Part shown: one piece after another, positions 1,976-55,064 of the stretch
How positions within the stretch are numbered: position 1 is the stretch's first letter
Layout: every line of letters begins with the position of its first letter
DNA from: an uncultured Candidatus Saccharibacteria bacterium
GTDB taxonomy: Bacteria; Patescibacteriota; JACPGU01
Assembly (NCBI GenBank): GCA_964355795.1
Contig: CAYHEQ010000001.1
Span: forward strand, 9,849-73,848
DNA: 64,000 nt
Direction of reading: 5' to 3'
The notes under the pieces: model-generated
The model's input: only the letters and a program-made list of their open reading frames with translations
What the model was told of the DNA's origin: nothing
Database searches by the model: none
Position numbers and translations under genes: made by a program

Positions 1976-3979
1976 TTATCTCTTGATCAATTTGGCCGCT
2001 TTGCTCAAAGCGTTGCTTTCTTTCAAGTAAATGGAAGAAGCGATAGCGCCAAACAAGGCAAGCAAGATCAGAGCGGCAATACTACCGGGCGTACCCGTAT
2101 CAGGCAAAGTACCGCCATCAGCCATAAGGTTGAAAGTGGCCAAGCTTGATACTTGAGCGGCGCCATCAGCGTTACCGGTGCCGGTAAAGCTCAATTGCGT
2201 AATATTGCTTGGCGTGTCCTGTTTTACTTTGACGGTGAAGTCCAGATAGCCGGCAGCTCCTTTGGCTAAAGAGCCGATAGAAGCTCCGGAAGAAATCACG
2301 CTGTCAGAGGTAGAAACAGTAGAGCCATTTACTACCACCTTCATACTACCGGCAATGTATTGTAGATTGGCTGGCAGGCTGTTGGTGATGCGAACATTGG
2401 TCAAGTCGCTATCGCCGTTGTTGGCAAAAGCCACACGAATGACAGCTGATTGACCGCGCTTGATAGTCAGCGCGCGCACATAGTTTTTGTTCACCGCGTC
2501 GTAGATAGAAGAAGTGATAGACAAAGACTTGCCGACTGGGGTAATATCCCCCTCTACCGTCACCTTACCACCATTGTCGTTAAGATTAACGGCGCCACTA
2601 TTAGAATAATAGTAGTTTGAGGTTGAGTAAGGACCACCAGCAACAGCGTTGGAGGCAACACGAACTTTGTAGTTCACATAGCCCCAGCTACCTACTGGGA
2701 TGTCAGGCATAACAACACCATTGGCAGAAACAATCGCATCGTTTAGGCCAACCCAAGTGGCGTTAGCGAAATAGAAACGAGAGTAATTACCAACATATTC
2801 CAAACCTGCTGGGATTTGAGCCTTGAAGACTCCACCCGTTAGAGGCGTAGTGCCAGTGTTGCTTACTTGCACTCTGTAGAACAGCTCTTCGCCACGCTTG
2901 GCAGTAGCTGAACTGACATAGTACTGATCATGACGAGTTTCGTTCAAAACTGTCGAAATGATACGAGCAGAAGCAACGGGGGCAGGCGTAACTCCAGAGA
3001 CCTCTACCGTCACCTTACCACCATTGTCGTTAAGATTAACGGCGCCACTATTAGAATAATAGTAGTTTGAGGTTGAGTAAGGACCACCAGCAACAGCGTT
3101 GGAGGCAACACGAACTTTGTAGTTCACATAGCCCCAGCTACCTACTGGGATGTCAGGCATAACAACACCATTGGCAGAAACAATCGCATCGTTTAGGCCA
3201 ACCCAAGTGGCGTTAGCGAAATAGAAACGAGAGTAATTACCAACATATTCCAAACCTGCTGGGATTTGAGCCTTGAAGACCCCACCCGTTAGAGGTGTAG
3301 TGCCAGTGTTGCTTACTTGCACTCTGTAGAACAGCTCTTCGCCACGCTTAGCGGTAGCTGAACTGACATAGTATTGATCATGACGAGTTTCGTTCAAAAC
3401 TGTCGAAATGATACGAGCAGAAGCAACAGGGGCAGGCGCGGTATTGCCATCAGATGGAGTGCCAGCTATTACCGTTGTCTTAGCTCTACTGTCGCCAATA
3501 TTAACGCCACCACCATTAGCAAAAACTTGAGTGGTTGGGGCAACTACAGTACCGGCAGTAGCGCTAGAAGCTACTTGGGTCTTGAAAGAAACATACACAT
3601 GAGTCATTGGCGGAACATCCTGCAAATTAACGCCATTTTCCGCAATAAGAGCATCCGACAATTGGACGACACTATTAGCGGTAGCGCCAACAGGCTTCCA
3701 GTAAAACTTTCCGCTACCAGGAACAAAATTTAAGCCAGCAGGAACAACAACGCGAGAGACAACTCCCTTAAGAGTTGTGGCCGTAACATTGTCGATAATA
3801 ACACTATACATCAGCGTATCGCCAGGCTTGGCAGAAGTTTGAGTAGTCCACTTCTTGTCGCTAGAAACATTGGCTACTTCGGAAGCTACAGAAACTGAAC
3901 CAGCGATAGCCAAAGCAGGAGCGACAATAGCCGTAATCATAGCGAAGACGGCTACGGAATTGATAAGTTTTTTTAACAT
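1976..3979 (-). CDS. LPXTG-anchored cell-surface protein with internal 150-aa tandem repeats
   Basis: N-terminal signal peptide MLKKLINSVAVFAMITAIVAPALA. The C-terminus carries LPDTG, then a hydrophobic stretch and a KR tail, which is a sortase sorting signal. Two identical 150-aa modules lie in between. Confidence 0.75.
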   Translation of the reverse strand: MLKKLINSVAVFAMITAIVAPALAIAGSVSVASEVANVSSDKKWTTQTSAKPGDTLMYSVIIDNVTATTLKGVVSRVVVPAGLNFVPGSGKFYWKPVGATANSVVQLSDALIAENGVNLQDVPPMTHVYVSFKTQVASSATAGTVVAPTTQVFANGGGVNIGDSRAKTTVIAGTPSDGNTAPAPVASARIISTVLNETRHDQYYVSSATAKRGEELFYRVQVSNTGTTPLTGGVFKAQIPAGLEYVGNYSRFYFANATWVGLNDAIVSANGVVMPDIPVGSWGYVNYKVRVASNAVAGGPYSTSNYYYSNSGAVNLNDNGGKVTVEVSGVTPAPVASARIISTVLNETRHDQYYVSSATAKRGEELFYRVQVSNTGTTPLTGGVFKAQIPAGLEYVGNYSRFYFANATWVGLNDAIVSANGVVMPDIPVGSWGYVNYKVRVASNAVAGGPYSTSNYYYSNSGAVNLNDNGGKVTVEGDITPVGKSLSITSSIYDAVNKNYVRALTIKRGQSAVIRVAFANNGDSDLTNVRITNSLPANLQYIAGSMKVVVNGSTVSTSDSVISSGASIGSLAKGAAGYLDFTVKVKQDTPSNITQLSFTGTGNADGAAQVSSLATFNLMADGGTLPDTGTPGSIAALILLALFGAIASSIYLKESNALSKAAKLIKR
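2551..3440. repeat. Near-perfect tandem duplication (2 x 450 bp) inside the LPXTG gene
   Basis: Landmarks recur at an exact 450-bp offset (cctctaccgtcaccttaccacc at 2551 and 3001; tgtcaggcat at 2701 and 3151). Only about 3 mismatches separate the copies. Confidence 0.9.
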
Positions 3980-4115
3980 AATTTTTCTCCATTTTCAAAT
4001 CGCTTGTTTTTTTGCTTTTTTGCGCCTATCGACCAGGATTTCTCCCAGTAAGACGTTTTGGCTTATGGCCAGAAAAGCGAAGCGATTAATGATTAATAAT
4101 TAATTTTTAATTTCT

Positions 4116-5825: not shown

Positions 5826-6389
5826 CGGTTTTGAACTCTTCCGAAAGCGCTCATCCCTTCACCTCGCCTCCCTTAGTAATATTGCGAAGCGAAAAGAAAT
5901 TTTTCACACTGTTGAGAGAAACAAAAAAACCAAAAAATAAACAACTTTGTAATTACATAGTAATTAGCTCATCCCGAATGCTCGGGATTCGCGTAACTAA
6001 TAGTAACTTGTTGCTTTTTTGGTTTTTATTTTTTCCGCACCTATCCGTATGAATCCGTTTAGAATCCGTGGATATCCGTGCTTTTCGTTCCCCTCAACTG
6101 GATATTTGAGTTTTGCTTGCCTTGTTATTAAAGAACTGACGTGGCATTTATTTCAACCACAAAAAACCCGGGGTAGTCTGGACAGATTACCTCTGGTTTT
6201 TTATGTTCGCAATAAAAATGCTTTTCGCCATGTTCATCTGGTGAAAATTAGTCTTTTCAATTTCTTGGCCATTTTAACACACTTCTCGGGAACCTGTCAA
6301 GGCTTTTTCTCTTGGGCTAGCCAAAAACAAAAGAGAGCCCACGCCCTCCTTGGAAACTACTACTAATTTAACTCAAAAAAACTACCCCG

Positions 6390-9250: not shown

Positions 9251-9536
9251 CTCCAGCTTGTCTAACGCAATTCTTTTTTATATTCACTGGCCTCAGTTCA
9301 AACCAATAAAATAAAAATCCAACGACAAGTAGTATCAAAATAAACCAAGCATATTTCATATTATTGCGCATTCTGTTCTTTTTTGTACCGCCAGCAATAC
9401 TTATTGCTGACAAACCACAAAATTCACAAAAGGTGGCTTCTTTCTCTATTTTTTTACCACAATTTTCACAGAACATAGCAAATTGATTACTTATGATATT
9501 CGCGATGTTATTATACCACACATGGTGTTCTTGCAT
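9189..9536 (-). CDS. Small zinc-ribbon membrane protein
   Basis: CENCGKK..CEFCG zinc ribbon followed by one TM helix. The true start is probably MFCENCG, which removes the overlap with the upstream ORF. Confidence 0.45.
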   Translation of the reverse strand: MQEHHVWYNNIANIISNQFAMFCENCGKKIEKEATFCEFCGLSAISIAGGTKKNRMRNNMKYAWFILILLVVGFLFYWFELRPVNIKKNCVRQAGDVRYKFYGEEYQKCLHENGL

Positions 9537-9543
9537 TAAAATT

Positions 9544-12500
9544 CTACACCGCGCTATCGTCGCAATACCGACTATACGGGCATTGCTCGCAGGTCATCTG
9601 GTCGGGTGTGGCGGTAAAAGCTTGGGCTCTAATTCCCTCGGCCGCTTTTTTGATATTTTCTTTGGTTTTGGCAATAGTCTTCTCGTCCGGTGTGGCCTTG
9701 CCCAAAATCCCTGATTCTAGGAAAAATAGGCCCACTTCATCTGGCATCTTACCATCATTTTCTTCCACCGCCAGCGCGTAAATAGCCAACTGAATGCTTT
9801 CTTTGGCTCTCCTCTCCGCCTTTTCTTCGCTGTCGATACTGGAAGTTTTGAAGTCGATGATGCGAATTTTCCCCTCCTCCGGCTCTTCCAAGATGTCAAT
9901 CCGTCCCTCAATAATAATATCGTCCAGTGTGAAAGTAAATTTTTTCTCCACTTCCTTGACATTAAAAATCTTGGAATAAGAGTGGACAAATTTCTTAATC
10001 ACCTCAATTCCTTGGTCAAATCTCTGCTTCTCATGCTCGGCGGAAAGAAATCCTTCCGAGCTCCAATTGTCGCGGTAAATATTCAACAATTCTTCCAGTG
10101 TCAAATCGCCTGAAAGTTCCCGAGGTCGCACCTCCGTCCGCTTCGCTCCCCGAGGAACGACCTCTTGAGCTATTTGGTCATTATAATTTGTTTGTAATTT
10201 GTAATTTGTAATTTGTAATTTTCTTTTATAATATTCTTCAATCACCTTGTGCACAGCTCGCCCAAAAATCACCCTTGGGTCGGTCATCAGCCGAATCGGC
10301 GTGATGTGGATATATTTGTATTTCCGCGGACAAGTCAGATAATCATCCACTTCCGCTCTTGACAGACGTAGCTTCCCTTCGCACATCTTGAGGCGAGTGG
10401 AATAAAGTGGCTCGGCTTGAGGCTGGTGTTGCTGGATGCGCTCAATCGGGGAAAAAGTAATCATCTCGGGCGCCACCTTACCCTGCCCCACCGCTTCCGC
10501 TACAAAACGCGAGACTTTTGTGGTTCTTTTGCCACCGTAATCTCGTCCAGCGGAGAGATACAATTTTTTCTTGGCGCGCGTCATTCCAACATAAAAAAGT
10601 CGGCGCTCTTCTTGAACATGGACATCACCCTCGGGTAATTTTTCTTTAATCAATTCTACTGGCACCTCAAAAGTATTACTGCGGTTCGCCCCCGGAAAAC
10701 GCGAGTCAATCAATCCCGCCATAAAAACATAATCAAATTCCAGCCCCTTGGCGGCGTGAAAAGTCAGCACTCGTACCGCGTCAAAATTGGGGTCGTCAGA
10801 GGACTCTTTCGCATCCTCCCCTACTTCCAATAGAACATCAAGGTATTCCATAAATTTCTGCAATCCCGTGTCCAAATTAGCGTCTTGAAAGCCCCGAATA
10901 CGGTCAAAAAATGAGGCAATAGAAATAATCTTTTCGGCATCAGCGATACTCCCCTCTTTTTCCCGTGAAGAAAGCATTTTCAGGTAATCACTCTCTTGCA
11001 AGAATTCGTAAAGAATCTCGCCTGTATTCTTACCGACACTCTCGCGCCGAAACTTCGTCAAAAGATCTAATGCTTTTTCTATTTTTCCGCGTTCTTCTGC
11101 GTTAATTTCCGCGACTTTTCCGCGCAAATACTCTTCAAGTGGAATGTTGGTAGAGCGCACTTTGTGGAGGATTACGCTCAAACCATCATAACCCACCCCC
11201 ACTACTTCACTGGTCAGCAAATTAAACAGAGCCAAATTGTCGGTCGGATTGGAGAGAATAGAGAGAAAAGAAATGAGTATCTTAATAACCTGTTTACGGA
11301 AAAGCCCCTCCGCGCCAGAAAAGGTGAAGGGAATTTTGTGCGCCGAAAGAGCATTGGTGAAAGCTAAAGCATTCTTGTTGCCTCGCACGAGAATGGCAAA
11401 ATCAGAATAATTATTTTCTTGTTTTTTTAATTTTTTAATTTCTTCGGCGACAGAGGCTGCTTCTTCTTGTTCTGAATCCTTGTAAATAAATTCCGGCTCA
11501 CTCCCCTGCTCGGTGGCAGAAATTAATTTTTTATCAATCTTGTATTTCGTCTCCAGCCGTTCTTCATTATTTTTTATGAGGCGGTAACTCGCATCCAAAA
11601 TTGCCTGGGTCGAGCGATAATTTTCCTTTAAGACAATTTGCTTCACATTGGGGTACTGCTCCGTAAAGGCCATAATGTTGGACACCGACGCCCCGCGAAA
11701 TTTGTAAATAGACTGATCGTCATCACCAACGACGGTAACCACTGGGCATGGCAGATTGCAGATTTCAGATTGCAGATTGTTTTGAATTTCGGATTTTGGA
11801 TTTTTGATTTGTTTGGGATTTTGGATTTGAGATTTGAGATTTGCTATAGTCAAAATCTTTAGAAGTTCGTTTTGACTATAGTTGGTGTCTTGGAATTCGT
11901 CAACTAAAATATATTTGTAGGTTTGGCGTAATCTGGCGAGAAGAGAAGGTTTTTCCTGCAAAGCCTTCAACATGTATAATAAGGTATCGCCAAAATCCAG
12001 TCGATCAGAGGCAATCATCATTTTTTGATAAGTCGCATACGCTCGCGCCAGCTCCAAATGCTTTTCTGCTTCCTCTTTTTCCGCCTCGATTTGCGCTTTG
12101 TCTGCGCTGGTCTGCGCGAAGTCAGTGTAGGTCTGCGGTTCTATCACCTCGTCTTTGAGGCGTGAAAAATATTTGAGCATATCGGCAATAAATTTCGTCG
12201 GGTCAGAAAGAGGGCGGAAAATTTTCAAATCAAAATCAAAAATCCTTTCGCGAACGAAAAGAATTTGTTGGATATCAGAGAGCACTTTGAAATTGGTGGA
12301 AAAGCCGAGATAGTAAGCGTTTTCTTGCAAAAATTCTTCAGCAAACGAGTGGAAAGTTTTGATTTTCACATCATTGTAACCATAAGGCGCGATGATATCC
12401 ACGCGCTCCTCCATTTCGTAAGCGGCTTTTTTGGTAAAGGTGAGAGCGAGAATTTCCGAGGGCTTTGCTAATTTTTCCGCAATCAAATAGGCTATTTTTT

Positions 12501-12621
12501 TCGTAATGACCGCGGTCTTTCCAGTCCCCGCGCCGGCCACGATTAAAAGAGGTCCGTCATTATATTTGACGGCCTCTCTTTGCTCGGAATTGAGCCCCTC
12601 CAATATTTCATCAGCTTGCAT
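9544..12621 (-). CDS. UvrD/PcrA-family helicase fused to a C-terminal PD-(D/E)XK (Cas4/AddB-like, Fe-S) nuclease domain
   Basis: Helicase motif I at GAGTGKT (the first G is the start of the quoted string, aa 29). The 1025-aa protein has a C-terminal IDFKTS nuclease motif and the cysteine cluster CEQCPYSRYC. Two low-complexity insertions are encoded by simple-sequence DNA. Confidence 0.85.
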   Translation of the reverse strand: MQADEILEGLNSEQREAVKYNDGPLLIVAGAGTGKTAVITKKIAYLIAEKLAKPSEILALTFTKKAAYEMEERVDIIAPYGYNDVKIKTFHSFAEEFLQENAYYLGFSTNFKVLSDIQQILFVRERIFDFDLKIFRPLSDPTKFIADMLKYFSRLKDEVIEPQTYTDFAQTSADKAQIEAEKEEAEKHLELARAYATYQKMMIASDRLDFGDTLLYMLKALQEKPSLLARLRQTYKYILVDEFQDTNYSQNELLKILTIANLKSQIQNPKQIKNPKSEIQNNLQSEICNLPCPVVTVVGDDDQSIYKFRGASVSNIMAFTEQYPNVKQIVLKENYRSTQAILDASYRLIKNNEERLETKYKIDKKLISATEQGSEPEFIYKDSEQEEAASVAEEIKKLKKQENNYSDFAILVRGNKNALAFTNALSAHKIPFTFSGAEGLFRKQVIKILISFLSILSNPTDNLALFNLLTSEVVGVGYDGLSVILHKVRSTNIPLEEYLRGKVAEINAEERGKIEKALDLLTKFRRESVGKNTGEILYEFLQESDYLKMLSSREKEGSIADAEKIISIASFFDRIRGFQDANLDTGLQKFMEYLDVLLEVGEDAKESSDDPNFDAVRVLTFHAAKGLEFDYVFMAGLIDSRFPGANRSNTFEVPVELIKEKLPEGDVHVQEERRLFYVGMTRAKKKLYLSAGRDYGGKRTTKVSRFVAEAVGQGKVAPEMITFSPIERIQQHQPQAEPLYSTRLKMCEGKLRLSRAEVDDYLTCPRKYKYIHITPIRLMTDPRVIFGRAVHKVIEEYYKRKLQITNYKLQTNYNDQIAQEVVPRGAKRTEVRPRELSGDLTLEELLNIYRDNWSSEGFLSAEHEKQRFDQGIEVIKKFVHSYSKIFNVKEVEKKFTFTLDDIIIEGRIDILEEPEEGKIRIIDFKTSSIDSEEKAERRAKESIQLAIYALAVEENDGKMPDEVGLFFLESGILGKATPDEKTIAKTKENIKKAAEGIRAQAFTATPDQMTCEQCPYSRYCDDSAV
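10191..10218. repeat. (TTTGTAA)x4 heptanucleotide tandem repeat inside the helicase-nuclease coding sequence
   Basis: tttgtaatttgtaatttgtaatttgtaa encodes LQITNYKLQTNY in frame. The unit length is not a multiple of 3. Confidence 0.85.
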
Positions 12622-12692
12622 AGGATCATTTTACCACAAAACAAAGAGGCGCGATACTCGCACTTCCGCACAAAACACTCTAACGAGTCTCC

Positions 12693-13177: not shown

Positions 13178-13219
13178 CGAGGTTCGACCTTAAACAGCTA
13201 ATTCTCAAGGTCGAACCTC
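13178..13219. repeat. Hairpin repeat family copy (GAGGTTCGACC ... GGTCGAACCTC)
   Basis: ccgaggttcgaccttaaacagctaattctcaaggtcgaacctc; 13-bp inverted arms. Confidence 0.8.
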
Positions 13220-13233
13220 TAGGGGTCTGTTAT

Positions 13234-13279
13234 CCGAGGTTCGACCTTAGCTTCTGAACTTCCCCAAGGTCGAACCTCG
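13234..13279. repeat. Hairpin repeat family copy
   Basis: ccgaggttcgaccttagcttctgaacttccccaaggtcgaacctcgg. Confidence 0.8.
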
Positions 13280-14380: not shown

Positions 14381-14389
14381 AATATGTAA

Positions 14390-14590
14390 GCGATGCGAAT
14401 GATGCGAATTATCATGCCTGCCCGCAATGCTCTCGCCCGAAGCTTTTCATATCTGTTTATAATTATCGTACGTAATATTTAGGGAGCAAACAATATGGGT
14501 GGGGCGCATAGCGAGGCGGGCGGGCGAATCTACGAATCTTGTGCGAATTTATTCGCGATAATTCGCGTTAATTAGAGAAAATTAGCGACT
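14390..14590. repeat. GCGAAT-rich intergenic repeat locus containing a 117-bp MITE-like element (14413..14529)
   Basis: gatgcgaatgatgcgaatt ... ctacgaatcttgtgcgaatttattcgcg flanks a 117-bp segment. That segment is about 97% identical to 36201..36315. Confidence 0.8.
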
Positions 14591-15667: not shown

Positions 15668-15675
15668 ACTTTTGC

Positions 15676-15800
15676 GCTTATTTTTTAGCGATGCTAATCT
15701 ACGAATAATATGCGCCTATAGCGAATGTCTATGCAAATAGATTCGCATTCCATTCGTAGATTCGCGCGCATTCGCATTTCATTAGCATCGCGCTATCATT
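15676..15800. repeat. GCGAAT-rich intergenic repeat locus with inverted termini AGCGATGCTAAT / ATTAGCATCGCGCT
   Basis: Multiple ATTCGCAT / TCGTAGATTCGC motifs. The termini are reverse complements of each other. Confidence 0.75.
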
Positions 15801-16632
15801 ATACACCCAAATACCATTGAATAATATATTTTCCGAAGAACAAAGCGACGAGAAATCCACAGACCAGAAAAGGCGCAAAAGGGATGATGTCTTGACGCGT
15901 TTTTTTCTTCAGCGCTATCAGAACGAGGCTAAAGACCGAGCCCAAAATAAAGGCCGAAAAAAGCGCGACTAAAATAAGCGGCCATCCTAACAGCAAACCA
16001 ATGAATGTCCCCAATTTCACATCACCCCAACCCATCCATTTTTCTTTTGAAATCAAAACGAGAAGCAGAAAAAATCCCCCGCCAATGATCGGTCCCAAAA
16101 TGAATTGCCCAATATCTGGACTATAGATGAAGAAATTGGCGCCAAAGTCATTATGCAAAACTAGATTTAATAGCCCCAGCAAAAGCAAAAGTAAAATCCC
16201 GGGCAAAACTATTTTGTCCGGGACTAAATAAGTCCTCGCGTCAATGAAAAATATCGCTACCAGCGCCGCCAATCCTAAACCGTAAATGAGAAGAAATATC
16301 GTTAAATTATAGCCGAGGAAAGCTCCGGCGAAACGAAAATAAAGTCCAGCGAAAAGAAGTCCCATGAGCAATTCTAGCGCCGGATAAAGTAGCCCAATTT
16401 TGTTTCGGCAGTGGCGACAACGACCACGAAACGCCAAAAACGCCAAAATCGGCACTAATTCCAGCGCCGTGAGAGTTTGCTTGCATTGGGGACAACGACT
16501 GCGACCGAAAATAATCCCCTCGTCGGTATTAAATCTGGTGATAACCACCGAAAGGAAACTACCGATGATCGTGCCCACCACAAAGTATAAAGCTAGATTG
16601 AAATAGAAGCTGGTCATAAGATTATTATACAA
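15799..16632 (-). CDS. pilD: Prepilin peptidase (A24 family)
   Basis: CPQCKQ..CRHCRNKI zinc-binding tetracysteine. Multi-TM protein with a conserved GWGDVKLG Asp motif. Confidence 0.85.
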   Translation of the reverse strand: MYNNLMTSFYFNLALYFVVGTIIGSFLSVVITRFNTDEGIIFGRSRCPQCKQTLTALELVPILAFLAFRGRCRHCRNKIGLLYPALELLMGLLFAGLYFRFAGAFLGYNLTIFLLIYGLGLAALVAIFFIDARTYLVPDKIVLPGILLLLLLGLLNLVLHNDFGANFFIYSPDIGQFILGPIIGGGFFLLLVLISKEKWMGWGDVKLGTFIGLLLGWPLILVALFSAFILGSVFSLVLIALKKKTRQDIIPFAPFLVCGFLVALFFGKYIIQWYLGV

Positions 16633-16737: not shown

Positions 16738-16776
16738 TGAGGTTCGACCTCTGGGCATCCTTTGAGGTCGAACCTC
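16738..16776. repeat. Hairpin repeat family copy (loop variant B) located immediately downstream of the major pilin gene
   Basis: gaggttcgacctctgggcatcctttgaggtcgaacctc. The loop is the reverse complement of the loop in the copy at 29004..29043. Confidence 0.8.
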
Positions 16777-16881
16777 TTGGCGGGGAAGGTTAGGCGCGTA
16801 AGTCCTAATTATGCCATAATTTTCAACCGAATACGGCATCCAGAAGGATGCCGTATTCGTTGCGCGCTTTTGAATTTCCTA

Positions 16882-17325
16882 TCAACTGCTGGTGCAAGCG
16901 GCCGCAATAGCAACGTCTTTCCCCCCGCTACCGACAGAATAAGTGGCCGTACCCCCTGTCGGGATATTCTCAAGTGTGGCTACTAAAGCAAAATCTGTGG
17001 CGTTAGCGCAATATTTATAAAACTCTGTGGCGTTTGGCGCTACAATATCTTTCTCCACATATCCAAGCTTTCTTAGAGAAGTCGCTACAGCTGGATCCCA
17101 AATAATAGCCTTGAAAGAACCCGATGCCGCTGGATAAGTCCCCATATCCAAAGAATACTGCAATACTGCCTTAGAAACATAATCCAAATCCGCCTTTCTC
17201 TTCCCGTCTCTGGCCCTAGACCGAGCCGACGAGAAAGAAGCCAAACCAATAGTCGCCAAGATAGCGATAATGGCAATAACTATCAAAAGTTCAATTAAGG
17301 TAAAACCCTTTTCTTTTTTTTGCAT
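16882..17325 (-). CDS. pilA: Major type IV pilin (PilA-like)
   Basis: KGFTLIELLIVIAIIAILATIGL class III signal, small 147-aa protein, C-terminal Cys pair (YCANATDF...AAACTSS). Strong RBS AAGGAG 5 nt before the ATG. Confidence 0.8.
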   Translation of the reverse strand: MQKKEKGFTLIELLIVIAIIAILATIGLASFSSARSRARDGKRKADLDYVSKAVLQYSLDMGTYPAASGSFKAIIWDPAVATSLRKLGYVEKDIVAPNATEFYKYCANATDFALVATLENIPTGGTATYSVGSGGKDVAIAAACTSS

Positions 17326-17341
17326 AATTTCTCCTTTACTA

Positions 17342-17393
17342 TTAATTTCTTAATTTCTTAATTTCTTAATTTCTTAATTTCTTAATTTCTTAA
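17342..17393. repeat. (TTAATTTC)x6.5 octanucleotide tandem repeat in the 5' leader/promoter of the major pilin gene
   Basis: Six perfect 8-bp units plus a partial unit. They end 16 bp upstream of the pilin start codon, just upstream of the RBS. Confidence 0.9.
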
Positions 17394-17446
17394 CCCTATC
17401 GTAATACAATAACCTCTCTATGTTAAGGGCCACTTTTCAACAGGCT

Positions 17447-18664
17447 CTAAGTAATAACATTGGAAAGCTGGAATATCGGCATCAATATCGCCAAGACCAA
17501 AAACATTACTCCTAGACCAATAATCAACATAATCATTGGCTCAAGCAATGCCGTTAATCCTTTGATGGCCGTATTCGTTTCATCTTCATAAATGCTAGCT
17601 AATTTCAGCAAAATCTTGTCTAGTTGCCCGGTTTGTTCGCCAACAGCAATCATGGAAGCGACCAGTGGCGGGAAATAATGACTACGAGAGATAGGGACAG
17701 ATAAAGGAACTCCTCTCTCTACCTCGGCGATAGAACCCTTGATCTCTTGCTCTATCAAGATATTGCCAACGGATTCCGAGATCATGCTCAAAGATTTGAT
17801 GATAGGCACCCCGCCCCCCATCAAAAGACCGAGATTTTTGGCGAAGTGAGCCGTATAAATACCGAGATTGATCTTGCCAAAAACAGGAAATTTCAGCGCT
17901 ATCCACCCTATGGTATGTTTGCCCGTGGTAGTCAACATGAAATATCTAATCAACAAAACTGTAACAATGATAATGACAATAGTCAAATACCAATAGCTAA
18001 CGAGGAAGTGGCTCAAAGCGACCATCAGTCGCGTCAATACTGGCAGTTGCGCTCCAGAAGATTTGAAAACATCTTCTAGTTGAGGAATAACATAAACGAT
18101 AGCCACCAGGCCCACAGCGCCGATGGCGCCAATGATGAAGATTGGGTAAATCATCGCCGCCTTGATCTTGGACCGCATCGCGTAATCACCCTCCATCTGG
18201 TCGGCGACATCATTCAACGCTCCGTCCAGCTTGCCAGAGGCCTCTCCGCTCCTAATCATACTAATGAAAACTGGGGAAAAAACATAGGGGAACTGGCCAA
18301 TGGCAAAAGAAAAACTTTTGCCTTGTTCTATCAAAGATATTATTTTGATAATAACCTTAACCAAATTTTTATTAGTTGTTTGCCGAACCAGAGATCTCAA
18401 AGCCTCCATCAGGGGCAGACCAGCGTTAATCATCGTGGCTAACTGTCTGGAGAAAATAGCCTTATCTTTGGCTCTGATACCCGCAAAAATGCTACTAAAA
18501 AAATTGCGCACTCGGTCTTCCGTGGCCAAAAATGGTTTAACGGCCAGCACCGTCAGCTTGTTATAACGCAAAATATCATCCACCGCGTCAATGCTGTCGG
18601 CTTCTACCAAACCTTTGATGACCCTCCCCGATTTGTCTTGCGCTTCGTATTGATATTGATCCAT
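17447..18664 (-). CDS. pilC: Type IV pilus assembly platform protein PilC (GspF family)
   Basis: 405 aa with two GspF-like repeats and three TM segments, conserved across its length. Confidence 0.9.
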   Translation of the reverse strand: MDQYQYEAQDKSGRVIKGLVEADSIDAVDDILRYNKLTVLAVKPFLATEDRVRNFFSSIFAGIRAKDKAIFSRQLATMINAGLPLMEALRSLVRQTTNKNLVKVIIKIISLIEQGKSFSFAIGQFPYVFSPVFISMIRSGEASGKLDGALNDVADQMEGDYAMRSKIKAAMIYPIFIIGAIGAVGLVAIVYVIPQLEDVFKSSGAQLPVLTRLMVALSHFLVSYWYLTIVIIIVTVLLIRYFMLTTTGKHTIGWIALKFPVFGKINLGIYTAHFAKNLGLLMGGGVPIIKSLSMISESVGNILIEQEIKGSIAEVERGVPLSVPISRSHYFPPLVASMIAVGEQTGQLDKILLKLASIYEDETNTAIKGLTALLEPMIMLIIGLGVMFLVLAILMPIFQLSNVIT

Positions 18665-18791
18665 ATATTAGGTAAATCACAAACTACAAACTCCAAATCA
18701 CAAACCAATAATTAACGGCCTAGATTTTTGTTGTTTGAGATTTTTAACTTGAGATTTGTTTGCAATTTGTTATTTGTAATTTGTTATTTTA

Positions 18792-19871: not shown

Positions 19872-19970
19872 GGTAATAGTTTATAGGTTTTAGTTTGTAG
19901 TGATTAGTGGAATAAAATTACTTAATTTAACCTAAAAACTATAAACTAAAAACTGATATTTTTATTTTTT

Positions 19971-21815: not shown

Positions 21816-21896
21816 ACTGAATTATGATTCAGGATTTAGGATTTAGGATTTAAAAGATTATTCATGAATCATAAATCATAAATCTTGAATCCCTTC

Positions 21897-24359: not shown

Positions 24360-24414
24360 TTTGTTTTTGTTTTCCTCTTACGACTTGCTCTTACTATAAA
24401 TGAAAGATTTTTAT

Positions 24415-24487
24415 TTTGCAACTATGTAATTGCTTAAGCGATGCGAATCTACAAATAACATGCGAATATAGCGAATGTCTATGCGAA
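24415..24487. repeat. GCGAAT-rich repeat, left flank of the GxxExxY gene
   Basis: taagcgatgcgaatctacaaataacatgcgaatatagcgaatgtctatgcgaatc. Confidence 0.7.
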
Positions 24488-27103: not shown

Positions 27104-27140
27104 CCGAGGTTCGACCTTAGCTTCTAAATTTCTCCGAAGT
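27104..27140. repeat. Hairpin repeat family, half copy
   Basis: ccgaggttcgaccttagcttctaaatttctccgaagtctc; the right arm is absent. Confidence 0.6.
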
Positions 27141-27146
27141 CTCCGT

Positions 27147-27191
27147 CCGAGGTTCGACCTTAACTTCTAAACTTCTCCAAGGTCGAACCTC
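27147..27191. repeat. Hairpin repeat family copy
   Basis: ccgaggttcgaccttaacttctaaacttctccaaggtcgaacctc. Confidence 0.8.
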
Positions 27192-28037: not shown

Positions 28038-28101
28038 CCGAGGTTCAACCTTAGCTCCTAAACTTCTCCACTTGTCCGCCTCTGGAGGAAGGTTGAACCT
28101 C
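28038..28101. repeat. Hairpin repeat family copy (T-to-A variant, long loop)
   Basis: ccgaggttcaaccttagctcctaaacttctccacttgtccgcctctggaggaaggttgaacctc. Confidence 0.7.
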
Positions 28102-29020: not shown

Positions 29021-29043
29021 AGGATGCCCAGAGGTTGAACCTC
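29004..29043. repeat. Hairpin repeat family copy (loop variant B, opposite orientation)
   Basis: ccgaggctcaacctcaaaggatgcccagaggttgaacctc. Confidence 0.75.
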
Positions 29044-29065
29044 TTTACCCTAGATGGTTTCCTGT

Positions 29066-29110
29066 CCGAGGTTCAACCTTAGCTTCCAAACTTCCCCAAG
29101 GTTGAACCTC
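29066..29110. repeat. Hairpin repeat family copy
   Basis: ccgaggttcaaccttagcttccaaacttccccaaggttgaacctc. Confidence 0.8.
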
Positions 29111-30872: not shown

Positions 30873-31265
30873 TTATCGTAAAACTGGAGAAGCTTCCATC
30901 GATTTTATTTCTTTAATGTCTTTAGAATTAAAAATTTTCTTCTCTCCAAGCTTATCCACTACTTTTTCTAATTTTTCGTCCCTTTTCCTCATCATAACAA
31001 TCAAATCGCTCTTCAAATTAATCATTTTGTCTGTCATGAAACTCTTGGTGACCATTTGATTCCTTACGCTATCTATATCGGCTTGCAGATCAGTTTTGAC
31101 GGCTTGCAGATCAGTTTTGACACTCTGCAGGTCAGTTTTTACACCCTGAAGATCGGTTTTTATTTCCTTAATATCCCCATGAATACCGCCAAATTGATCA
31201 GTAAGGAAATCCATGAATTTCTCATCATTCATGATGCTAGATTGTTTGGTATTTTCTCCTGTCAT
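30873..31265 (-). CDS. Small coiled-coil protein with 7-aa tandem repeats (KTDLQxV x4)
   Basis: IKTDLQGVKTDLQSVKTDLQAVKTDLQA is encoded by a 4 x 21-bp tandem repeat. Confidence 0.5.
   Translation of the reverse strand: MTGENTKQSSIMNDEKFMDFLTDQFGGIHGDIKEIKTDLQGVKTDLQSVKTDLQAVKTDLQADIDSVRNQMVTKSFMTDKMINLKSDLIVMMRKRDEKLEKVVDKLGEKKIFNSKDIKEIKSMEASPVLR
31080..31163. repeat. 4 x 21-bp tandem repeat (coding)
   Basis: ggcttgcagatcagttttgac x2, followed by two diverged units. Confidence 0.85.
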
Positions 31266-34001: not shown

Positions 34002-34730
34002 TTATCCTCTTCTGTATGTCATCAATATCTGCTTCAACATCTCATCTTTTGGAATTTGAGCTGTTCCCTCTTCTAAAACTTTTATCGCTTCTGCTCTATT
34101 ATTTTCGAAATCTCTCAAAAGTACCGCTAGATTAACATAGGTGGCAGAAAAATGTGGGTCAATGGTGATGGCTTCGCGATAATGCTTTTTTGCTTCTTCG
34201 TATTTTTTTTCACTACGCAAAACATTGCCCAGATTATTATGCAAAATAGCGTCTTGAGGAGTTACTTTTACGGCTTGTGAGAAAAACTCCTCGGCTTTAC
34301 CCAAATCTCCAAGATTATAATAAGAAACGGCAAGTTTCTGTAAAACATCCTTGTTGTTAGGCTGTGTATTGATAACTTTTTCTAATTCTTCCACGGTTTC
34401 TTTGTATTTTTTTGTTTGCATTTCTGCGCTTATTGCCTGATCGCCACTTTTACCCATCGTTGCCTCCCTGTACGCATCCAGCCCATTCGCTAACCATTCC
34501 TGCGCTTTCACATCGCGCCAAATACGATATTTATTCAACAGAACATTCGCCAACAAAGATCCCCCATAAACCACAACTATAAGAATAATTATACTAATTA
34601 TAATTTTTGCTTTTTTATTAAAAATCTTCCTCTTTCTCTCCTCCCAATTTTTGTTTTTCTTTTTCATAAGTGAAATTTCTGTATCTGTAGTATATATTTC
34701 CTCATTTAGAGGTTCGACCTTAGTTTCCAA
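34002..34730 (-). CDS. TPR-repeat membrane protein (paralog)
   Basis: The first about 11 codons of the ORF are a hairpin repeat, so the start is likely MKKKNKNW at about 34667. One TM segment then TPR repeats (ILHNNLGNVLRSEKKYEEAKKHYREAITID). Confidence 0.65.
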   Translation of the reverse strand: METKVEPLNEEIYTTDTEISLMKKKNKNWEERKRKIFNKKAKIIISIIILIVVVYGGSLLANVLLNKYRIWRDVKAQEWLANGLDAYREATMGKSGDQAISAEMQTKKYKETVEELEKVINTQPNNKDVLQKLAVSYYNLGDLGKAEEFFSQAVKVTPQDAILHNNLGNVLRSEKKYEEAKKHYREAITIDPHFSATYVNLAVLLRDFENNRAEAIKVLEEGTAQIPKDEMLKQILMTYRRG

Positions 34731-35383: not shown

Positions 35384-35543
35384 ATGTCTTCTCTAAAATC
35401 TTTTTTCTAATATCCATTTTTTTACAAATTACGGTAATATCTTTTGCCATAGACTTTCCTCTACTTTTCCTTTTTGTTTTTTTTGATTCACTATATTGTG
35501 TACTTTGATCCCTTATTTTCTTAATTTCTTATTTTCTTAGCCC

Positions 35544-36095
35544 CTACGGCGCCAAAGTGTCCAAGACGATGAACGAATCGCCAGATTTGGCGGAATAGTT
35601 GCACCAGATCATATCCCCGGAATAGCCCGTTACTATGGCAGTGGCGCAACCCCCCGTTGTTGGCGCAGAAGCGGTAGTGCCATCAGAGCCAGCCTTCATA
35701 CCGCTATATTTGAATCCTGTCGGTGTGGAGAATTTGACATCTGTGGACTTGGCTAAACTTTCAGGATTGTTGACGGTTAAAGTGAATTTGACTGTATCGC
35801 CCGCTTTCGCCGTCGCCGTGTTGTTTCGCGCAGATACTGGCGCGATGTTTTCTGCCTTCGTATGCACCGAAACACCTTGATAATTGAAATTGTAGCCGAC
35901 ATCAATAGGTTGTCTATCGGCCGCGAATGTTCCCAGTTTGAATCCTCCCAAGGCCACGCCAGCCAAAAGCAAAAGGCCTACTACATATATAGTAGCCTTT
36001 CTGTTGGAAAGTTTTTTGGAAAAACCCTTGAGAGTGGAGGCTCTTTTGATGCGATTGCTCCTGCGCACGATTTTTTCAAAATTGAAAGATAACAT
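35544..36095 (-). CDS. Secreted/membrane-anchored protein with Thr/Ala-rich beta domain
   Basis: Signal anchor IYVVGLLLLAGVALGGF. DUF11-like composition. Confidence 0.5.
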   Translation of the reverse strand: MLSFNFEKIVRRSNRIKRASTLKGFSKKLSNRKATIYVVGLLLLAGVALGGFKLGTFAADRQPIDVGYNFNYQGVSVHTKAENIAPVSARNNTATAKAGDTVKFTLTVNNPESLAKSTDVKFSTPTGFKYSGMKAGSDGTTASAPTTGGCATAIVTGYSGDMIWCNYSAKSGDSFIVLDTLAP

Positions 36096-36180
36096 CTTTT
36101 TTGTATTACTGTTATGAAAATTTTGTTTTGAAATATCTATTGCTAACTGACATTAAGCCTGACTTAAAATCTTGCTGAAC

Positions 36181-36430
36181 CGATGCTAATCTGCGAATGG
36201 ATGCCTGCCCGCAATGCTCTCGCCCGAAGCTTTCATATCTGTTTACAATTATCGTACGCAATATTTAGGGAGCAAACAATATGGGTGGGGCGCATAGCGA
36301 GGCGGGCGGGCGAATATGGCGAATATTTATGCGAATTAATTCGCATGGGATTCGTAAATTCGCATCGCGTTCGTAGATTCGCATGGCATTTCAAATTCGC
36401 ATCGCATTATTCGTGTCGCTTAACTCAAAA
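36181..36430. repeat. GCGAAT-rich repeat locus containing the second 115-bp MITE-like element copy (36201..36315)
   Basis: atgcctgcccgcaatgctctcgcccgaagctttcatatctgtttacaattatcgtacgcaatatttagggagcaaacaatatgggtggggcgcatagcgaggcgggcgggcgaat, followed by four ATTCGCAT octamers. Confidence 0.8.
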
Positions 36431-38759: not shown

Positions 38760-38884
38760 ATACTTTTAGTTAATAGCGATGCGAATGATACGAATTTTTC
38801 ATGCGAATATGGCGAATCCCTATGCGAATCCAATTTGCATGAATATTCGTAGATTCGCATGTCATTCGTAGATTAGCATCGCGT
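38760..38884. repeat. GCGAAT-rich repeat locus with inverted termini
   Basis: agcgatgcgaatgatacgaat ... ttcgtagattcgcatgtcattcgtagattagcatcgcg. Confidence 0.75.
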
Positions 38885-39727: not shown

Positions 39728-39860
39728 AGAAGATTATTATACCATTTCTCCAAATATGGTATACTAGGTTCTACGGATTACAGATAGTACAGATGTACGG
39801 ATAATGCAAACATATCCTATCTGTAATCTGTAAATCCGTATTATCCGTAATCCGTAGAGT

Positions 39861-41246: not shown

Positions 41247-41360
41247 TCGCGATGCGAATAGCGCAAATTTGAAATGCCGTGCGAATATAACGAATTTTTA
41301 TACTAATAATCTCGTTCGCATAAGATTCGTAGATTCGCATACCATTCGTAGATTAGCATC
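41240..41360. repeat. GCGAAT-rich repeat locus with inverted termini
   Basis: cgcgatgcgaatagcgcaaat ... ttcgtagattcgcataccattcgtagattagcatcgc. Confidence 0.75.
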
Positions 41361-45253: not shown

Positions 45254-45304
45254 ACGCCACCATTATACACACAACCCCCTCGCAGATAAAGATAAGCAAC
45301 TATC

Positions 45305-45418: not shown

Positions 45419-45883
45419 ATGAACAAAAAAACATTTTGGATTTTGGTTTTTTTCATCCTCCTCTCCCTCATCGGATTGGCAGACTCTATTTACTTAACTT
45501 ACGAACATTATACGGGAGCGCCTCTGGTTTGTATTATAACCCAAGGTTGCGATACCGTCACCACCTCCCCCCAAGCCTATATTTTTGGCGTCTATATCGC
45601 CATTTATGGCGTTATCTATTATTCTCTGATTTTCTTTTTGAGCTTGATGGCAATTACCACCAATTACGCGCGAAGCGCAAATTTCTATAAATTTCTTATC
45701 TTTCTAACCCCCCTCGGTTTCCTCGCCTCTCTCTATTTCCTCTACCTCCAAGCCTTCGTTATTGGCACTTTCTGTACCTGGTGCCTCATCTCGGCTATTG
45801 ATTCAACCCTGCTCTTCATATTGGGACTATATTTAGCAAACGATAACCACCGTAGCCATATTTTCGTGGAAGATAAGCTCTAA
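45419..45883 (+). CDS. Vitamin K epoxide reductase (VKOR) family membrane protein
   Basis: Loop Cys pair (CIITQGCD) and active-site CTWC in a TM helix. Four or five TM segments. Confidence 0.7.
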   Translation: MNKKTFWILVFFILLSLIGLADSIYLTYEHYTGAPLVCIITQGCDTVTTSPQAYIFGVYIAIYGVIYYSLIFFLSLMAITTNYARSANFYKFLIFLTPLGFLASLYFLYLQAFVIGTFCTWCLISAIDSTLLFILGLYLANDNHRSHIFVEDKL

Positions 45884-46074
45884 TTTCTTATTTTCTTAAT
45901 TTTTTATTTTCTTAGCCCTACCGTTTTCCACAAGAAAACTCCCCTTGCGTAAAATCCTTATCGGGTTAAAATGAGAGAGAACACCAGCAATTTGGTAATT
46001 TGTTGTAATTGAGTAACTGATTGCAATTAATTACTATAAATTAGCATCAGTTACCACCAATTACCCGAATCCCC

Positions 46075-50728: not shown

Positions 50729-51910
50729 CTACTTTTTAACTTTCACCATCCGATGCTTGCCAATTTTGATAATTATACCAGCAACGACATCTATGGTTGC
50801 GGTCACGTCTGTTGCCTTCCGCTCGTCAATGCTAACCCCGCCTTGCTGAACCAATCTGCGAGCATCACTTTTGCTAGAAACCTGACCGGTCGCGAAAACT
50901 AGCTCAACAATATTCATTTTGCCACTTTTAACCTTCACCTCTGGCATTTTCACATCCGTTTTCTTCTCGCGAAAAATGGCGTTGAATCTCTCCCCCGCTT
51001 TCTTCGCTTCCTTGTCGCCATAAATAGCGCCCACTAATTTTCCCGCCAAAAGAAATTTCGCGTCACGAGGATTTTTTTGAATATCTTTTTTCGCCTGCGC
51101 CAAATCAATATCTGTCAAAAGCTCATATCCGGACAACATCATCTTATCAGGCCAGCTCATCACTTTGCCAAATATCTCATCAGCGCTGTCTTTGAAGGAG
51201 ACTATATTGCCTTCTGTTTTTCCCATTTTCTTCCCCTCTGCATCTTCCAACAATTTTGTGGTCAAAACATATTTTTCTTTATTCTTCATTTTCTTCATCA
51301 ATGTTCTGCCCGCCAACATATTAAACATCTGATCATTACCCCCTATTTCCATATCCACGTCCATAGTCACCGAATCATAAGCCTGAAATATCGGATAGAG
51401 GAATTCATGAAGCGCAATACTTTTATCTTCCCTAATCCTTTTTTGGAACATCTCTCTCTCAATTAACTGACCGACCGTAAAATGCGATGCCAATTCTAGC
51501 AAATCCACCGGTTTTAATTTGTTGGTCCATTTCTCATTGTAAAGAAAACGCACCTTGGCGCTTTTCAAATTCAAAACGCCACCAATTTGTTTCTTATAGG
51601 CCTTGGCGTTTTCCAGAACTTGCTTGTGGGTCAACGGCTTGCGAGTCGCTGCTTTGTCAGTCGGATCGCCAATCTGGGCAGTGAAATCGCCAATCAAAAT
51701 AATAATCTCATGTCCCATCTGCTGGAATTGTCGCAATTTTCGGAGCTGGATGAGATGCCCTAAATGCAACGAATCCCCCGTCGGATCAATCCCATAATAA
51801 ATCCGCAGTTTCTTGCCGGACTGCAAAGCTTTTTCCACCGCTCCCCTACTCGGATAAATGTTTTCTACTCCCCTTTCCAGAAGAGTTTTTATTTGCGCCT
51901 CTTTTGACAT
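50729..51910 (-). CDS. tyrS: Tyrosine--tRNA ligase
   Basis: YYGIDPTGDSLHLGHL (HIGH), KMGKT (KMSKS), C-terminal S4 domain. Confidence 0.85.
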   Translation of the reverse strand: MSKEAQIKTLLERGVENIYPSRGAVEKALQSGKKLRIYYGIDPTGDSLHLGHLIQLRKLRQFQQMGHEIIILIGDFTAQIGDPTDKAATRKPLTHKQVLENAKAYKKQIGGVLNLKSAKVRFLYNEKWTNKLKPVDLLELASHFTVGQLIEREMFQKRIREDKSIALHEFLYPIFQAYDSVTMDVDMEIGGNDQMFNMLAGRTLMKKMKNKEKYVLTTKLLEDAEGKKMGKTEGNIVSFKDSADEIFGKVMSWPDKMMLSGYELLTDIDLAQAKKDIQKNPRDAKFLLAGKLVGAIYGDKEAKKAGERFNAIFREKKTDVKMPEVKVKSGKMNIVELVFATGQVSSKSDARRLVQQGGVSIDERKATDVTATIDVVAGIIIKIGKHRMVKVKK

Positions 51911-52068
51911 AAAAAATAACTTATTTTTAGTTTCTTATTTTCTCAATTTCTTATTTTCTTATTTTACCATTTTGCTGTATAATAATAAAGAGGCGTAAAT
52001 TGCCTGTTTCGTTTTGATTTTTTATTTTCTTATTTTTTTTAATTTCTTAATTTTTTAGCCCCAAACCC

Positions 52069-54717: not shown

Positions 54718-54755
54718 GAATCGGGATTTTTGACAGCTTTCTTTGGTTTGGTATA

Positions 54756-55064
54756 ATGATGATAACAAAATTAATTCGCCTAATTATGAAATTATTTATC
54801 AATTCTTATATTGAAGAGGTCTTGAAAAAAGCAAAGTATGAATATGGGAAAACGACAGACAGCTGGTGCGCTAGTATCGATATTTTACCTGGTGCTTACG
54901 CGCAAGCAGACACGTTGGAAGAAGCAAGAAGTCAATTAGCCGAAGTTATTGAAGAATATGTTTTGGTGAGCTTGGTTAGCGGTGATAAATTACCGGCAAT
55001 AAACGATCTTGATTTTTCTTTTATATCAAAAAAACAAAAGGTAAAAACTTTGCAAAATGTCTAA
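54756..55064 (+). CDS. hicB: HicB-family antitoxin (second pair)
   Basis: WCASIDILPGAYAQADTLEEARSQLAEVIEEYV. Overlaps the downstream hicA-like gene by 8 bp. Confidence 0.6.
   Translation: MMITKLIRLIMKLFINSYIEEVLKKAKYEYGKTTDSWCASIDILPGAYAQADTLEEARSQLAEVIEEYVLVSLVSGDKLPAINDLDFSFISKKQKVKTLQNV

Follow-up and report, generated by a model that had tools for sequence, protein, structure and literature searches.

The locus considered here raises the question of whether a perfect tandem array of an 8-nt unit, lying immediately upstream of a type IV pilin gene, changes in length and what such changes would do to pilin output. The window, i.e., the whole stretch of DNA analysed, is 64,000 nucleotides long. 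The tract is most likely a slippage-prone octanucleotide microsatellite in an AU-rich transcribed pilin leader, in which changes of unit number would have graded or nearly neutral effects; on/off switching of pilin by the tract is unlikely.

The pilin ORF matched the Pfam families N_methyl (PF07963, E = 2e-10) and T2SSG (PF08334), and the N-terminus of the protein reads MQKKEKG followed, after the prepilin cleavage point, by FTLIELLIVIAIIA. The gene lies in an operon with the order pilB-pilT-pilC-pilin-pilD, then minor pilins; this arrangement, together with the pilin features, makes the label "major pilin" reasonable. PilC is 405 aa long as the ORF read here (387 aa from the database start), and its best named homologues are from Candidatus Microgenomates (68% identity) and CPR3 (58%), placing the organism in the Patescibacteria. 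On the minus strand, the order is pilC stop (17447) ... ccc TTAACA tagagaggttattgtat TACGAT AGGG TTAA(GAAATTAA)x6 TAGT AAAGGAG AAATT ATG (17325), with only 17 nt, Shine-Dalgarno (SD) sequence included, between the array and the ATG. The features of the locus are as follows.

17447–18664, minus strand: pilC (T2SSF platform protein), with its stop codon 50 nt upstream of the array head.
17398–17426, minus strand: predicted sigma-70-like promoter candidate, TTAACA-17 nt-TACGAT, matching the consensus at 9 of 12 positions.
17394–17397, minus strand: AGGG "head", abutting the 5′ side of the array and, with the first units, matching the family consensus GGGGCTAAGAAAATAAGAAATTAAG.
17342–17393, minus strand: octamer array, TTAA(GAAATTAA)x6 on the coding strand and 6.5 copies of TTAATTTC on the plus strand; copy number polymorphic (5.5/6.5/7.5).
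17331–17337, minus strand: SD sequence AAAGGAG, 4 nt 3′ of the array and 5 nt 5′ of the ATG; (A)GGAG is kept in relatives.
16882–17325, minus strand: type IV (major-type) pilin gene, 147 aa, prepilin leader MQKKEKG before FTLIE, two C-terminal Cys residues.
16828–16859, no strand assigned: hairpin with a 14-bp stem, 22 nt past the pilin stop codon and lacking a clear T-run; a probable transcript end or stabiliser.

Several other observations were made in this operon. An A8 homopolymer at 17313–17320 (minus strand) covers pilin codons 2–4 (ATG CAA AAA AAA GAA AAG) and is a potentially frameshift-prone tract; it was invariant in 4 of 4 assemblies, and relatives have A6–A7. The TTG start listed for pilD (16632) overlaps a TTAACA-17-TATAAT promoter, for which reason translation probably begins at the ATG at 16617 instead. 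Nearly all spacers of the pilB-pilT-pilC operon contain a hairpin with both arms made of locus-specific 7-nt repeat arrays (18665–18791, 19872–19970 and 21816–21890 in the window; 6216–6290 in the related contig L011; 4470–4581 and 6413–6462 in L010), the facing arms being, for example, ACAAAT(A/T)n and TTTGT(G/A)An, TAGTTTT and AAAACTA, and GATTTAT and TAAATCC. These hairpins stop a few nucleotides 5′ of start codons lacking an SD sequence; family-level relatives have the same style of hairpin with other units, and the heptamer arrays, including that of the pilT-pilC spacer, were invariant between assemblies. They may be intercistronic stabiliser or processing elements.

Tandem Repeats Finder reported the region 17342–17393 as a repeat of period 8 with 6.5 copies of TTAATTTC, 100% matches and a score of 104, and direct reading of the raw sequence gave the same array with no imperfections. 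The original prediction of a perfect array of this size ending just 5′ of the pilin ribosome-binding site (RBS) was therefore correct. No other perfect short-period run in the 64-kb window is as long as its 52 nt, the runner-up being 31 nt long with a period of 7. In first-order Markov simulations (n = 200), the longest period-8 run had a mean of 16 nt and a maximum of 20 nt. A perfect, uninterrupted tract, as is typical of simple sequence repeat (SSR) contingency loci, was thus present. The base composition of the array is 87.5% A/U.

A look-up of the exact pilin sequence matched three metaSPAdes contigs, which derive from the 0.1 μm replicates R1, R2, and R3 of Hainich groundwater well H52. 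The three filters were taken as a triplicate during a single sampling in January 2019, sequenced as 2 × 150 bp reads and each assembled separately with metaSPAdes 3.13 (PMC8672522). The exact pilin was found only in H52 assemblies and one NCBI contig, and its 90% cluster has a single member, present on 3 ENA contigs and the NCBI contig. The tract had 6.5 units in R1, 7.5 in R2 (to be read as a lower bound, see below), 5.5 in R3, and 6.5 in the window. When aligned to the window, the pilC-pilin spacers of R1–R3 were identical apart from the tract, and in the approximately 2.3 kb common to all four sequences only one SNP, near a contig end, was observed besides it. Variation in length between otherwise identical flanks, another property of SSR contingency loci, was thus seen here in low-coverage assemblies (n = 4). 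The same samples supplied a control in five additional contigs, which together account for 12.3 kb of the window and showed 0 indels and 2 SNPs; this region includes the imperfect sister arrays at 35512–35539 and 45884–45914 and a 19-nt array at 36338–36408. The identical flanks and the indel-free controls indicate that the perfect tract is a specific hot spot in a near-clonal population. We conclude, with a probability of roughly 0.85, that the tract is a genuine hypervariable microsatellite and its variability real. Variation in unit number, as had been foreseen, was thus found among triplicate samples of one near-clonal population, and counting repeats, a check that had been proposed for raw reads or related genomes, did not return an invariant number in assemblies with identical pilin. 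The Hainich contigs L001–L003 break at a palindromic copy of the GAGGTTCGACCT type downstream of pilin.

The pilC-pilin spacer was scanned for promoters. TTAACA-17-TACGAT, 4 nt upstream of the tract, was the sole candidate, and none was detected inside or downstream of the tract. The transcription start predicted from it falls approximately at the first array unit. This candidate is unlike the TGGTAWAAT extended −10 boxes apparently typical of the genome; relatives have TATAAT boxes in their pilC-pilin spacer, which supports a dedicated pilin promoter there. Whether transcription starts at the predicted promoter or reads through from pilC, the tract would lie within the transcribed leader. The earlier placement of the tract in a leader/promoter was supported for the leader, the array ending 4 nt before the SD sequence, and not for the promoter, the candidate site being upstream of the tract. 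Since TAA is present in every unit, the tract is non-coding, with all frames closed on both strands; the 8-nt period rotates the frames, so that an ORF entering from upstream stops within three units at any copy number. In several other genes of the window, extended −10 boxes (TGGTATAAT or TGGTAAAAT) lie only 6–8 nt 5′ of the ATG (9510–9518, 12628–12636, 39736–39744, 54749–54757, 16624–16629, and around 45258–45266), a placement that suggests frequent leaderless mRNAs in this CPR genome.

RNA folding predicted that (GAAAUUAA)n forms only 4-bp UUAA:UUAA helices of approximately −0.4 kcal/mol per unit, and in the full-transcript ensemble the array was approximately 55% unpaired. The predicted mean unpaired probability from the SD sequence to the AUG was constant for 0 to 12 units (0.26–0.27 in the short construct and 0.39 in the full transcript). 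A 7-nt complementarity between AAUUAAG and CUUAAUU (T-L-I codons) was absent from the minimum-free-energy structures. An hmw-like hairpin or copy-number-dependent occlusion of the RBS was considered and rejected, neither being predicted with the short or the full transcript. With no copy-number-dependent effect predicted at the RBS, any functional effect is purely inferred; the effect on expression may be quantitative, if there is one, and could be nil.

The following mechanism is proposed. The mRNA of the major type IV pilin would have an AU-rich, unstructured 5′ leader in which an octanucleotide microsatellite has expanded. Transcription would begin at TTAACA-17-TACGAT, or read through from pilC, and the transcript would carry the tract as (GAAAUUAA)n immediately before the SD sequence. 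Slipped-strand mispairing would add or remove 8-nt units, giving leaders of about 61, 69, or 77 nt. Pilin output could then shift modestly and in a graded way with the amount of single-stranded A/U-rich ribosome-loading sequence (of the S1 or standby type) or, by an alternative route, because the leader acts as an RNase-sensitive sequence. Such a tract would be a rheostat and not an on/off switch. In E. coli, translation is reported to be raised by A/U-rich enhancers and by standby tails that lack structure (PMC2176067, PMC5934652). We rate the chance that the tract modulates pilin output in a graded way as about even.

The tract is not the only sequence of its kind in the window. Searching with a two-unit pattern and allowing up to 3 mismatches gave 26 matches, compared with 3.1 expected, and no shuffle reached 26; the matches included 35513–35536, 45880–45911, 51927–51966, and 52014–52054, as well as sites near 4107, 28695, and 31267. 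Recurrence of related motifs, which had been noted at 35515, 45886, 51920, and 52010, was recovered by this search. In intergenic DNA, TTAWTTTC was counted 19 times on the plus strand and 0 times in the opposite orientation; beyond the pilin array, 13 such units are distributed over 8 sites, all on one strand. A 25-nt head-plus-array consensus, GGGGCTAAGAAAATAAGAAATTAAG, is present at four sites (17373–17397, with 3 mismatches; 35520–35544; 45895–45919; and 52038–52062), all on the minus strand, where 0 were expected by chance. By this match, the AGGG before the pilin tract is the "head" of the family and the pilin tract its one homogenised, expanded member. The other main members are as follows.

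35512–35544, minus strand: imperfect sister array, GGGGCTAA GAAAATAA GAAATTAA GAAAATAA G; invariant in 4 assemblies.
45884–45919, minus strand: imperfect sister array, AGGGCTAA GAAAATAA AAAATTAA GAAAATAA GAAATTAG; invariant in 3 assemblies.
51920–51969, minus strand: TyrRS leader, with an extended −10 box TGGTAAAAT (51969–51961) and then AAGAAAAT-type units up to the ATG at 51910; no SD sequence.
52012–52062, minus strand: sister array, GGGGCTAAAAAATTAAGAAATTAAAAAAAATAAGAAAATAAAAAAT; antisense to the plus-strand PBP1 gene and immediately upstream of its ATG at 52069.

Tandem copies of one unit thus recur across many intergenic loci of this genome, as is characteristic of dispersed repeats, and the suggestion of a lineage-specific AT-rich, promoter-proximal motif family was substantiated by the excess of matches, the shared consensus, and the strand bias. 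The genes at 3979 and 30768 share TATA(A/G)(C/T)-gcgtc-GGGAAAAATAA..., a −10-like box followed by GGG and an A-rich run, and at the gene at 31265 family units run up to the ATG with no SD sequence. These arrangements support the first transcribed bases after a −10 box, or the leader, as a putative common context of the family. The members at 45884–45919, which abuts the stop codon of the plus-strand VKOR gene, and 52012–52062 lie outside the sense leaders of all genes, and a role as leader RNA therefore cannot explain the whole family. In the window, 44 of the 54 genes are on the minus strand and the GC skew has the same sign throughout, so the strand bias of the family may reflect gene or replication orientation. 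A role as a marker of highly expressed genes was rejected; the gene guessed to be EF-Tu is TyrRS, and its neighbour is PBP1. The pilin tract would be a recently homogenised and expanded member of this genome-wide GGGGCTAA(GAAAWTAA)n family.

Other repeats were also observed in the window. A dispersed palindromic element based on GAGGTTCGACCT has 16 copies, compared with 0.17 expected; they usually occur in intergenic spacers, paired in inverted orientation (13179–13278, 16739–16776, 27106–27191, 28040–28101, 29032–29110, and 34709–34720). A dispersed intergenic family of ATTCGCAT-type 19-nt repeats is located at 15668–15800, 24360–24480, 36338–36408, 38760–38880, and 41315–41359, and a repeat of approximately 140–170 nt is 89–92% identical between two spacers (14388–14556 and 36170–36314). 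Within ORF 1976–3979 (minus strand), which encodes a DUF11-domain protein, probably a surface protein, and has a leader beginning with GGGAAAAATAAGAAATTAAAAATTAAT, a 450-bp sequence is tandemly duplicated with 98% identity (2551–3438). The ORF at 9544–12621 (minus strand), for a UvrD/AddA-type helicase, contains in-frame heptamer arrays and a GAGGT(T/G)CGACC palindromic element (11751–11843 and 10123–10221); the in-frame repeats encode IANLKSQIQNPKQIKNPKSEIQNNLQSEICNL and LQITNYKLQTNY...EVVPRGAKRTEVRPRELSG. They recall two kinds of repeat by which proteins gain peptide segments, Rickettsia palindromic elements and Borg tandem repeats.

In the nearest genomes (PilC 65–68% identical; L004, L008/9, L010, and L011/12), the pilC-pilin spacer has no tandem array; these genomes keep the operon and an AU-rich leader of 30–50 nt with a conserved (A)GGAG. 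In two Patescibacteria species at a greater distance, represented by several contigs each (L026–31 and L032–35), there is likewise no array, and their pilin leaders show only SNPs. A GAAAWTAA double unit was absent from all relatives' loci examined. The homologous position in L010 reads cccTTAAGAAtat, which may resemble the seed from which TTAAGAAA was amplified. Absence of the array from relatives points to a recent, lineage-specific expansion and not to a conserved regulatory device. A scan of viral contigs for the array gave matches only in unrelated AT-rich phage contigs, where an identical (GAAATTAA)n was observed at 23–37% GC (IMG/VR L018, L021, L022, and L025; L019 and L023). In one phage family, 5 or 7 units lie downstream of a TTGACA-17-TATAAT promoter, approximately 100 nt before a gene, and two viral contigs have at least 15 units at the contig end. 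The viral arrays are independent origins of the same octamer array in a leader-like position, with differing unit numbers.

These comparisons bear on the strongest alternative, in which the polymorphism is real and the tract a neutral by-product of slippage in AT-rich leader DNA, with no effect on expression or fitness. Such neutrality would agree with the predicted SD accessibility and leader structure, both independent of unit number, and with the lack of an array in the pilC-pilin spacer of six other Patescibacteria lineages, the comparison with related genomes that had been called for and by which the array is lineage-specific. It would also fit the position of imperfect sister arrays near housekeeping genes (TyrRS, PBP1, and VKOR) and in non-leader contexts, and the independent emergence of (GAAATTAA)n in unrelated viral DNA. 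The points against it are circumstantial: the sole perfect, expanded, and variable member of the family is at a surface pilus subunit gene, a class typical of contingency loci, and the tract abuts a strong SD sequence, where A/U-rich sequence is reported to affect translation in model bacteria (PMC2176067). We regard neutrality as a serious possibility, though a less probable one than a graded effect.

An artefact, in which one true tract length was turned into 5.5, 6.5, and 7.5 units by low-coverage de Bruijn assembly or by sequencing, is improbable. The pilin contigs of R1–R3 have a k-mer coverage of only 2.9–4.5, so the alleles, known from n = 4 assemblies, are thinly covered, and the k-mer set is not given in PMC8672522; k = 55 was taken as the default maximum. 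At this k, no k-mer recurs within a tract of 5.5 to 7.5 units, each such tract is a unique path, and the 5.5- and 6.5-unit alleles should therefore be read-supported and not products of collapse. A true tract of at least 8.5 units would collapse to 7.5, which makes the 7.5-unit allele a lower bound, and collapse at k = 33 would give 4.5; neither yields 5.5 or 6.5. Moreover, tracts of 44–60 nt are spanned by 150-nt reads, and 0 indels were seen elsewhere in these assemblies, in approximately 20 kb that takes in several imperfect arrays with units of 7–19 nt. Stutter from PCR or Illumina sequencing is generally not expected with 8-nt units, which also counts against an artefact.

The geometry described above makes classic on/off phase variation, in which unit number would re-space a promoter or re-phase an UP element or activator site, very improbable. 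The tract is AT-rich, variable in length, and adjoins a fimbrial-type gene, and it contains hexamers that weakly resemble −35 (TTAAGA) and −10 (TAATAG, at the 3′ edge) boxes. However, a tract of 44–60 nt is too long to be a −35/−10 spacer, so the classic fimbrial promoter-spacing switch invoked by the original prediction found no support, and the promoter scan placed the best candidate upstream, with none within or after the tract. Phasing of an UP element fared no better, because the 17 nt left before the ATG, SD sequence included, leave no room for a promoter; a promoter built from tract units would in any case keep its local geometry at any unit number. The promoter-to-RBS distance does change with unit number, as had been suggested, but this only lengthens an unstructured 5′ leader in which the accessibility of the SD sequence is predicted to be constant. 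A switch of expression by length change in an ORF or core promoter, a further property of SSR contingency loci, was thus not found, the tract being outside any ORF and 3′ of the promoter candidate. Three further devices were rejected or gave no match. Frameshifting, an uORF, or attenuation of the S. gallolyticus pil1 type was rejected because the TAA in each unit stops upstream ORFs within three units; no terminator hairpin was seen between the tract and pilin, which also counts against attenuation. A sigma-54 promoter was rejected after reading of the spacer gave no GG-N10-GC match. An Rfam search of the window returned tRNAs only, with no known RNA family at the tract.

It is equally hard to credit that each unit offers a site to a nucleoid protein or to a regulator that binds DNA or RNA, with the array acting as a roadblock or translational repressor and copy number setting occupancy: the dispersed family, its conserved GGGGCTAA head, and its strict strand bias (19 versus 0) would suit such sites, as would the precedents of the binders proposed for Beggiatoaceae TAACTGA repeats (PMC4679880) and, in a preprint, the ToxR/H-NS heptads at ctxAB, whereas no candidate binding protein was identified, family members stand in heterogeneous contexts relative to genes, and the strand bias could simply track gene or replication orientation.

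The preferred reading, a hypervariable microsatellite in the pilin leader with graded effects if any, would matter for the biology of the host lineage. In Patescibacteria, type IV pili are considered the chief organelle for host attachment and DNA uptake (PMC8672522). A full-text literature search found no paper discussing phase variation in Patescibacteria, the single paper with both terms being on archaeal methylation. A leader SSR beside a surface-structure gene is of a known kind, and the present tract is a candidate for the first such found in Patescibacteria. In this uncultivated, regulator-poor lineage with a tiny genome, it offers a concrete case in which a surface appendage may be tuned stochastically. 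A larger claim, which we hold to be rather unlikely, is that this is the first CPR contingency-type locus, in which the octamer tract would let clonal episymbionts bet-hedge pilus abundance, and at the same time the active member of a new GGGGCTAA(GAAAWTAA)n family of leader elements. If bet-hedging were true, variation in pilus abundance could affect host attachment or DNA uptake in a genome-reduced episymbiont; if the leader elements were functional, they would set translation or stability of SD-poor mRNAs in the lineage. If neutral, the tract would still be useful for telling strains apart and would illustrate that SSRs can be unstable in CPR genomes.

Among known systems, the H. influenzae hifA/hifB TA repeats and the Bordetella fim poly-C tract are fimbrial promoter-spacer SSR switches, located between −35 and −10, in which the spacer changes by 1–2 bp. 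The present tract resembles them as a slippage-prone repeat of varying length beside a pilus/fimbrial subunit gene and differs in that its 52 nt lie downstream of the sole promoter candidate and abut the SD sequence. SSRs with units of 6–9 nt are rarely reported as phase-variation tracts (PMC4692102).

With A/U-rich enhancers and standby tails (PMC2176067 and PMC5934652), the tract shares high A/U content, an essentially unstructured state, and a position immediately 5′ of a strong SD sequence; a segment predicted to be single-stranded and A/U-rich (87.5%) is present directly 5′ of the SD sequence, with a 4-nt gap. Relatives have non-repetitive AU-rich leaders at the same place. Unlike the present tract, such enhancers are not known to be hypervariable tandem arrays.

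The TAACTGA heptamers of Beggiatoaceae, cyanobacteria, and Bacteroidetes are dispersed intergenic repeats located just before RBS-less start codons, for which a post-transcriptional role has been suggested (PMC4679880). Like them, the family described here has a short unit repeated 2–6 times at many intergenic sites of one genome, and its arrays at TyrRS and gene 31265 run up to starts with no canonical RBS. Unlike them, it is built on an octamer, GAAAWTAA, of different sequence, with a conserved GGGGCTAA head, and its pilin copy keeps a strong SD sequence. Heptamers before RBS-less starts, by which the TAACTGA/STRR repeats are recognised, were therefore not found in this family, and only at members such as TyrRS and gene 31265 do the units run up to an ATG with no SD sequence. 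For one member of the present family, copy-number polymorphism within a population was observed.

The functionally closest known system is (ATCTTTC)n of H. influenzae hmw1A, a heptamer SSR transcribed in the 5′-UTR that grades adhesin expression (PMC12721329). With at least 11 units, the hmw repeats fold into a long hairpin, one arm of which is G-rich; RNase III cleaves it, and expression falls as repeat number rises (PMC12721329). Unlike hmw, no stable hairpin or pairing partner is predicted at the pilin tract; in place of a long stable hairpin with a partner arm, only 4-bp UUAA:UUAA helices were found. Its unit is A/U-rich, 5.5–7.5 units were seen, and its host is an uncultivated CPR bacterium. 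Transcription in the 5′ leader, shown for hmw, is predicted for the pilin tract. As in hmw1A/hmw2A, a 7–8 nt unit is located upstream of an adhesin or surface-appendage gene, the length of the repeat is polymorphic within populations, and a graded effect would be expected.
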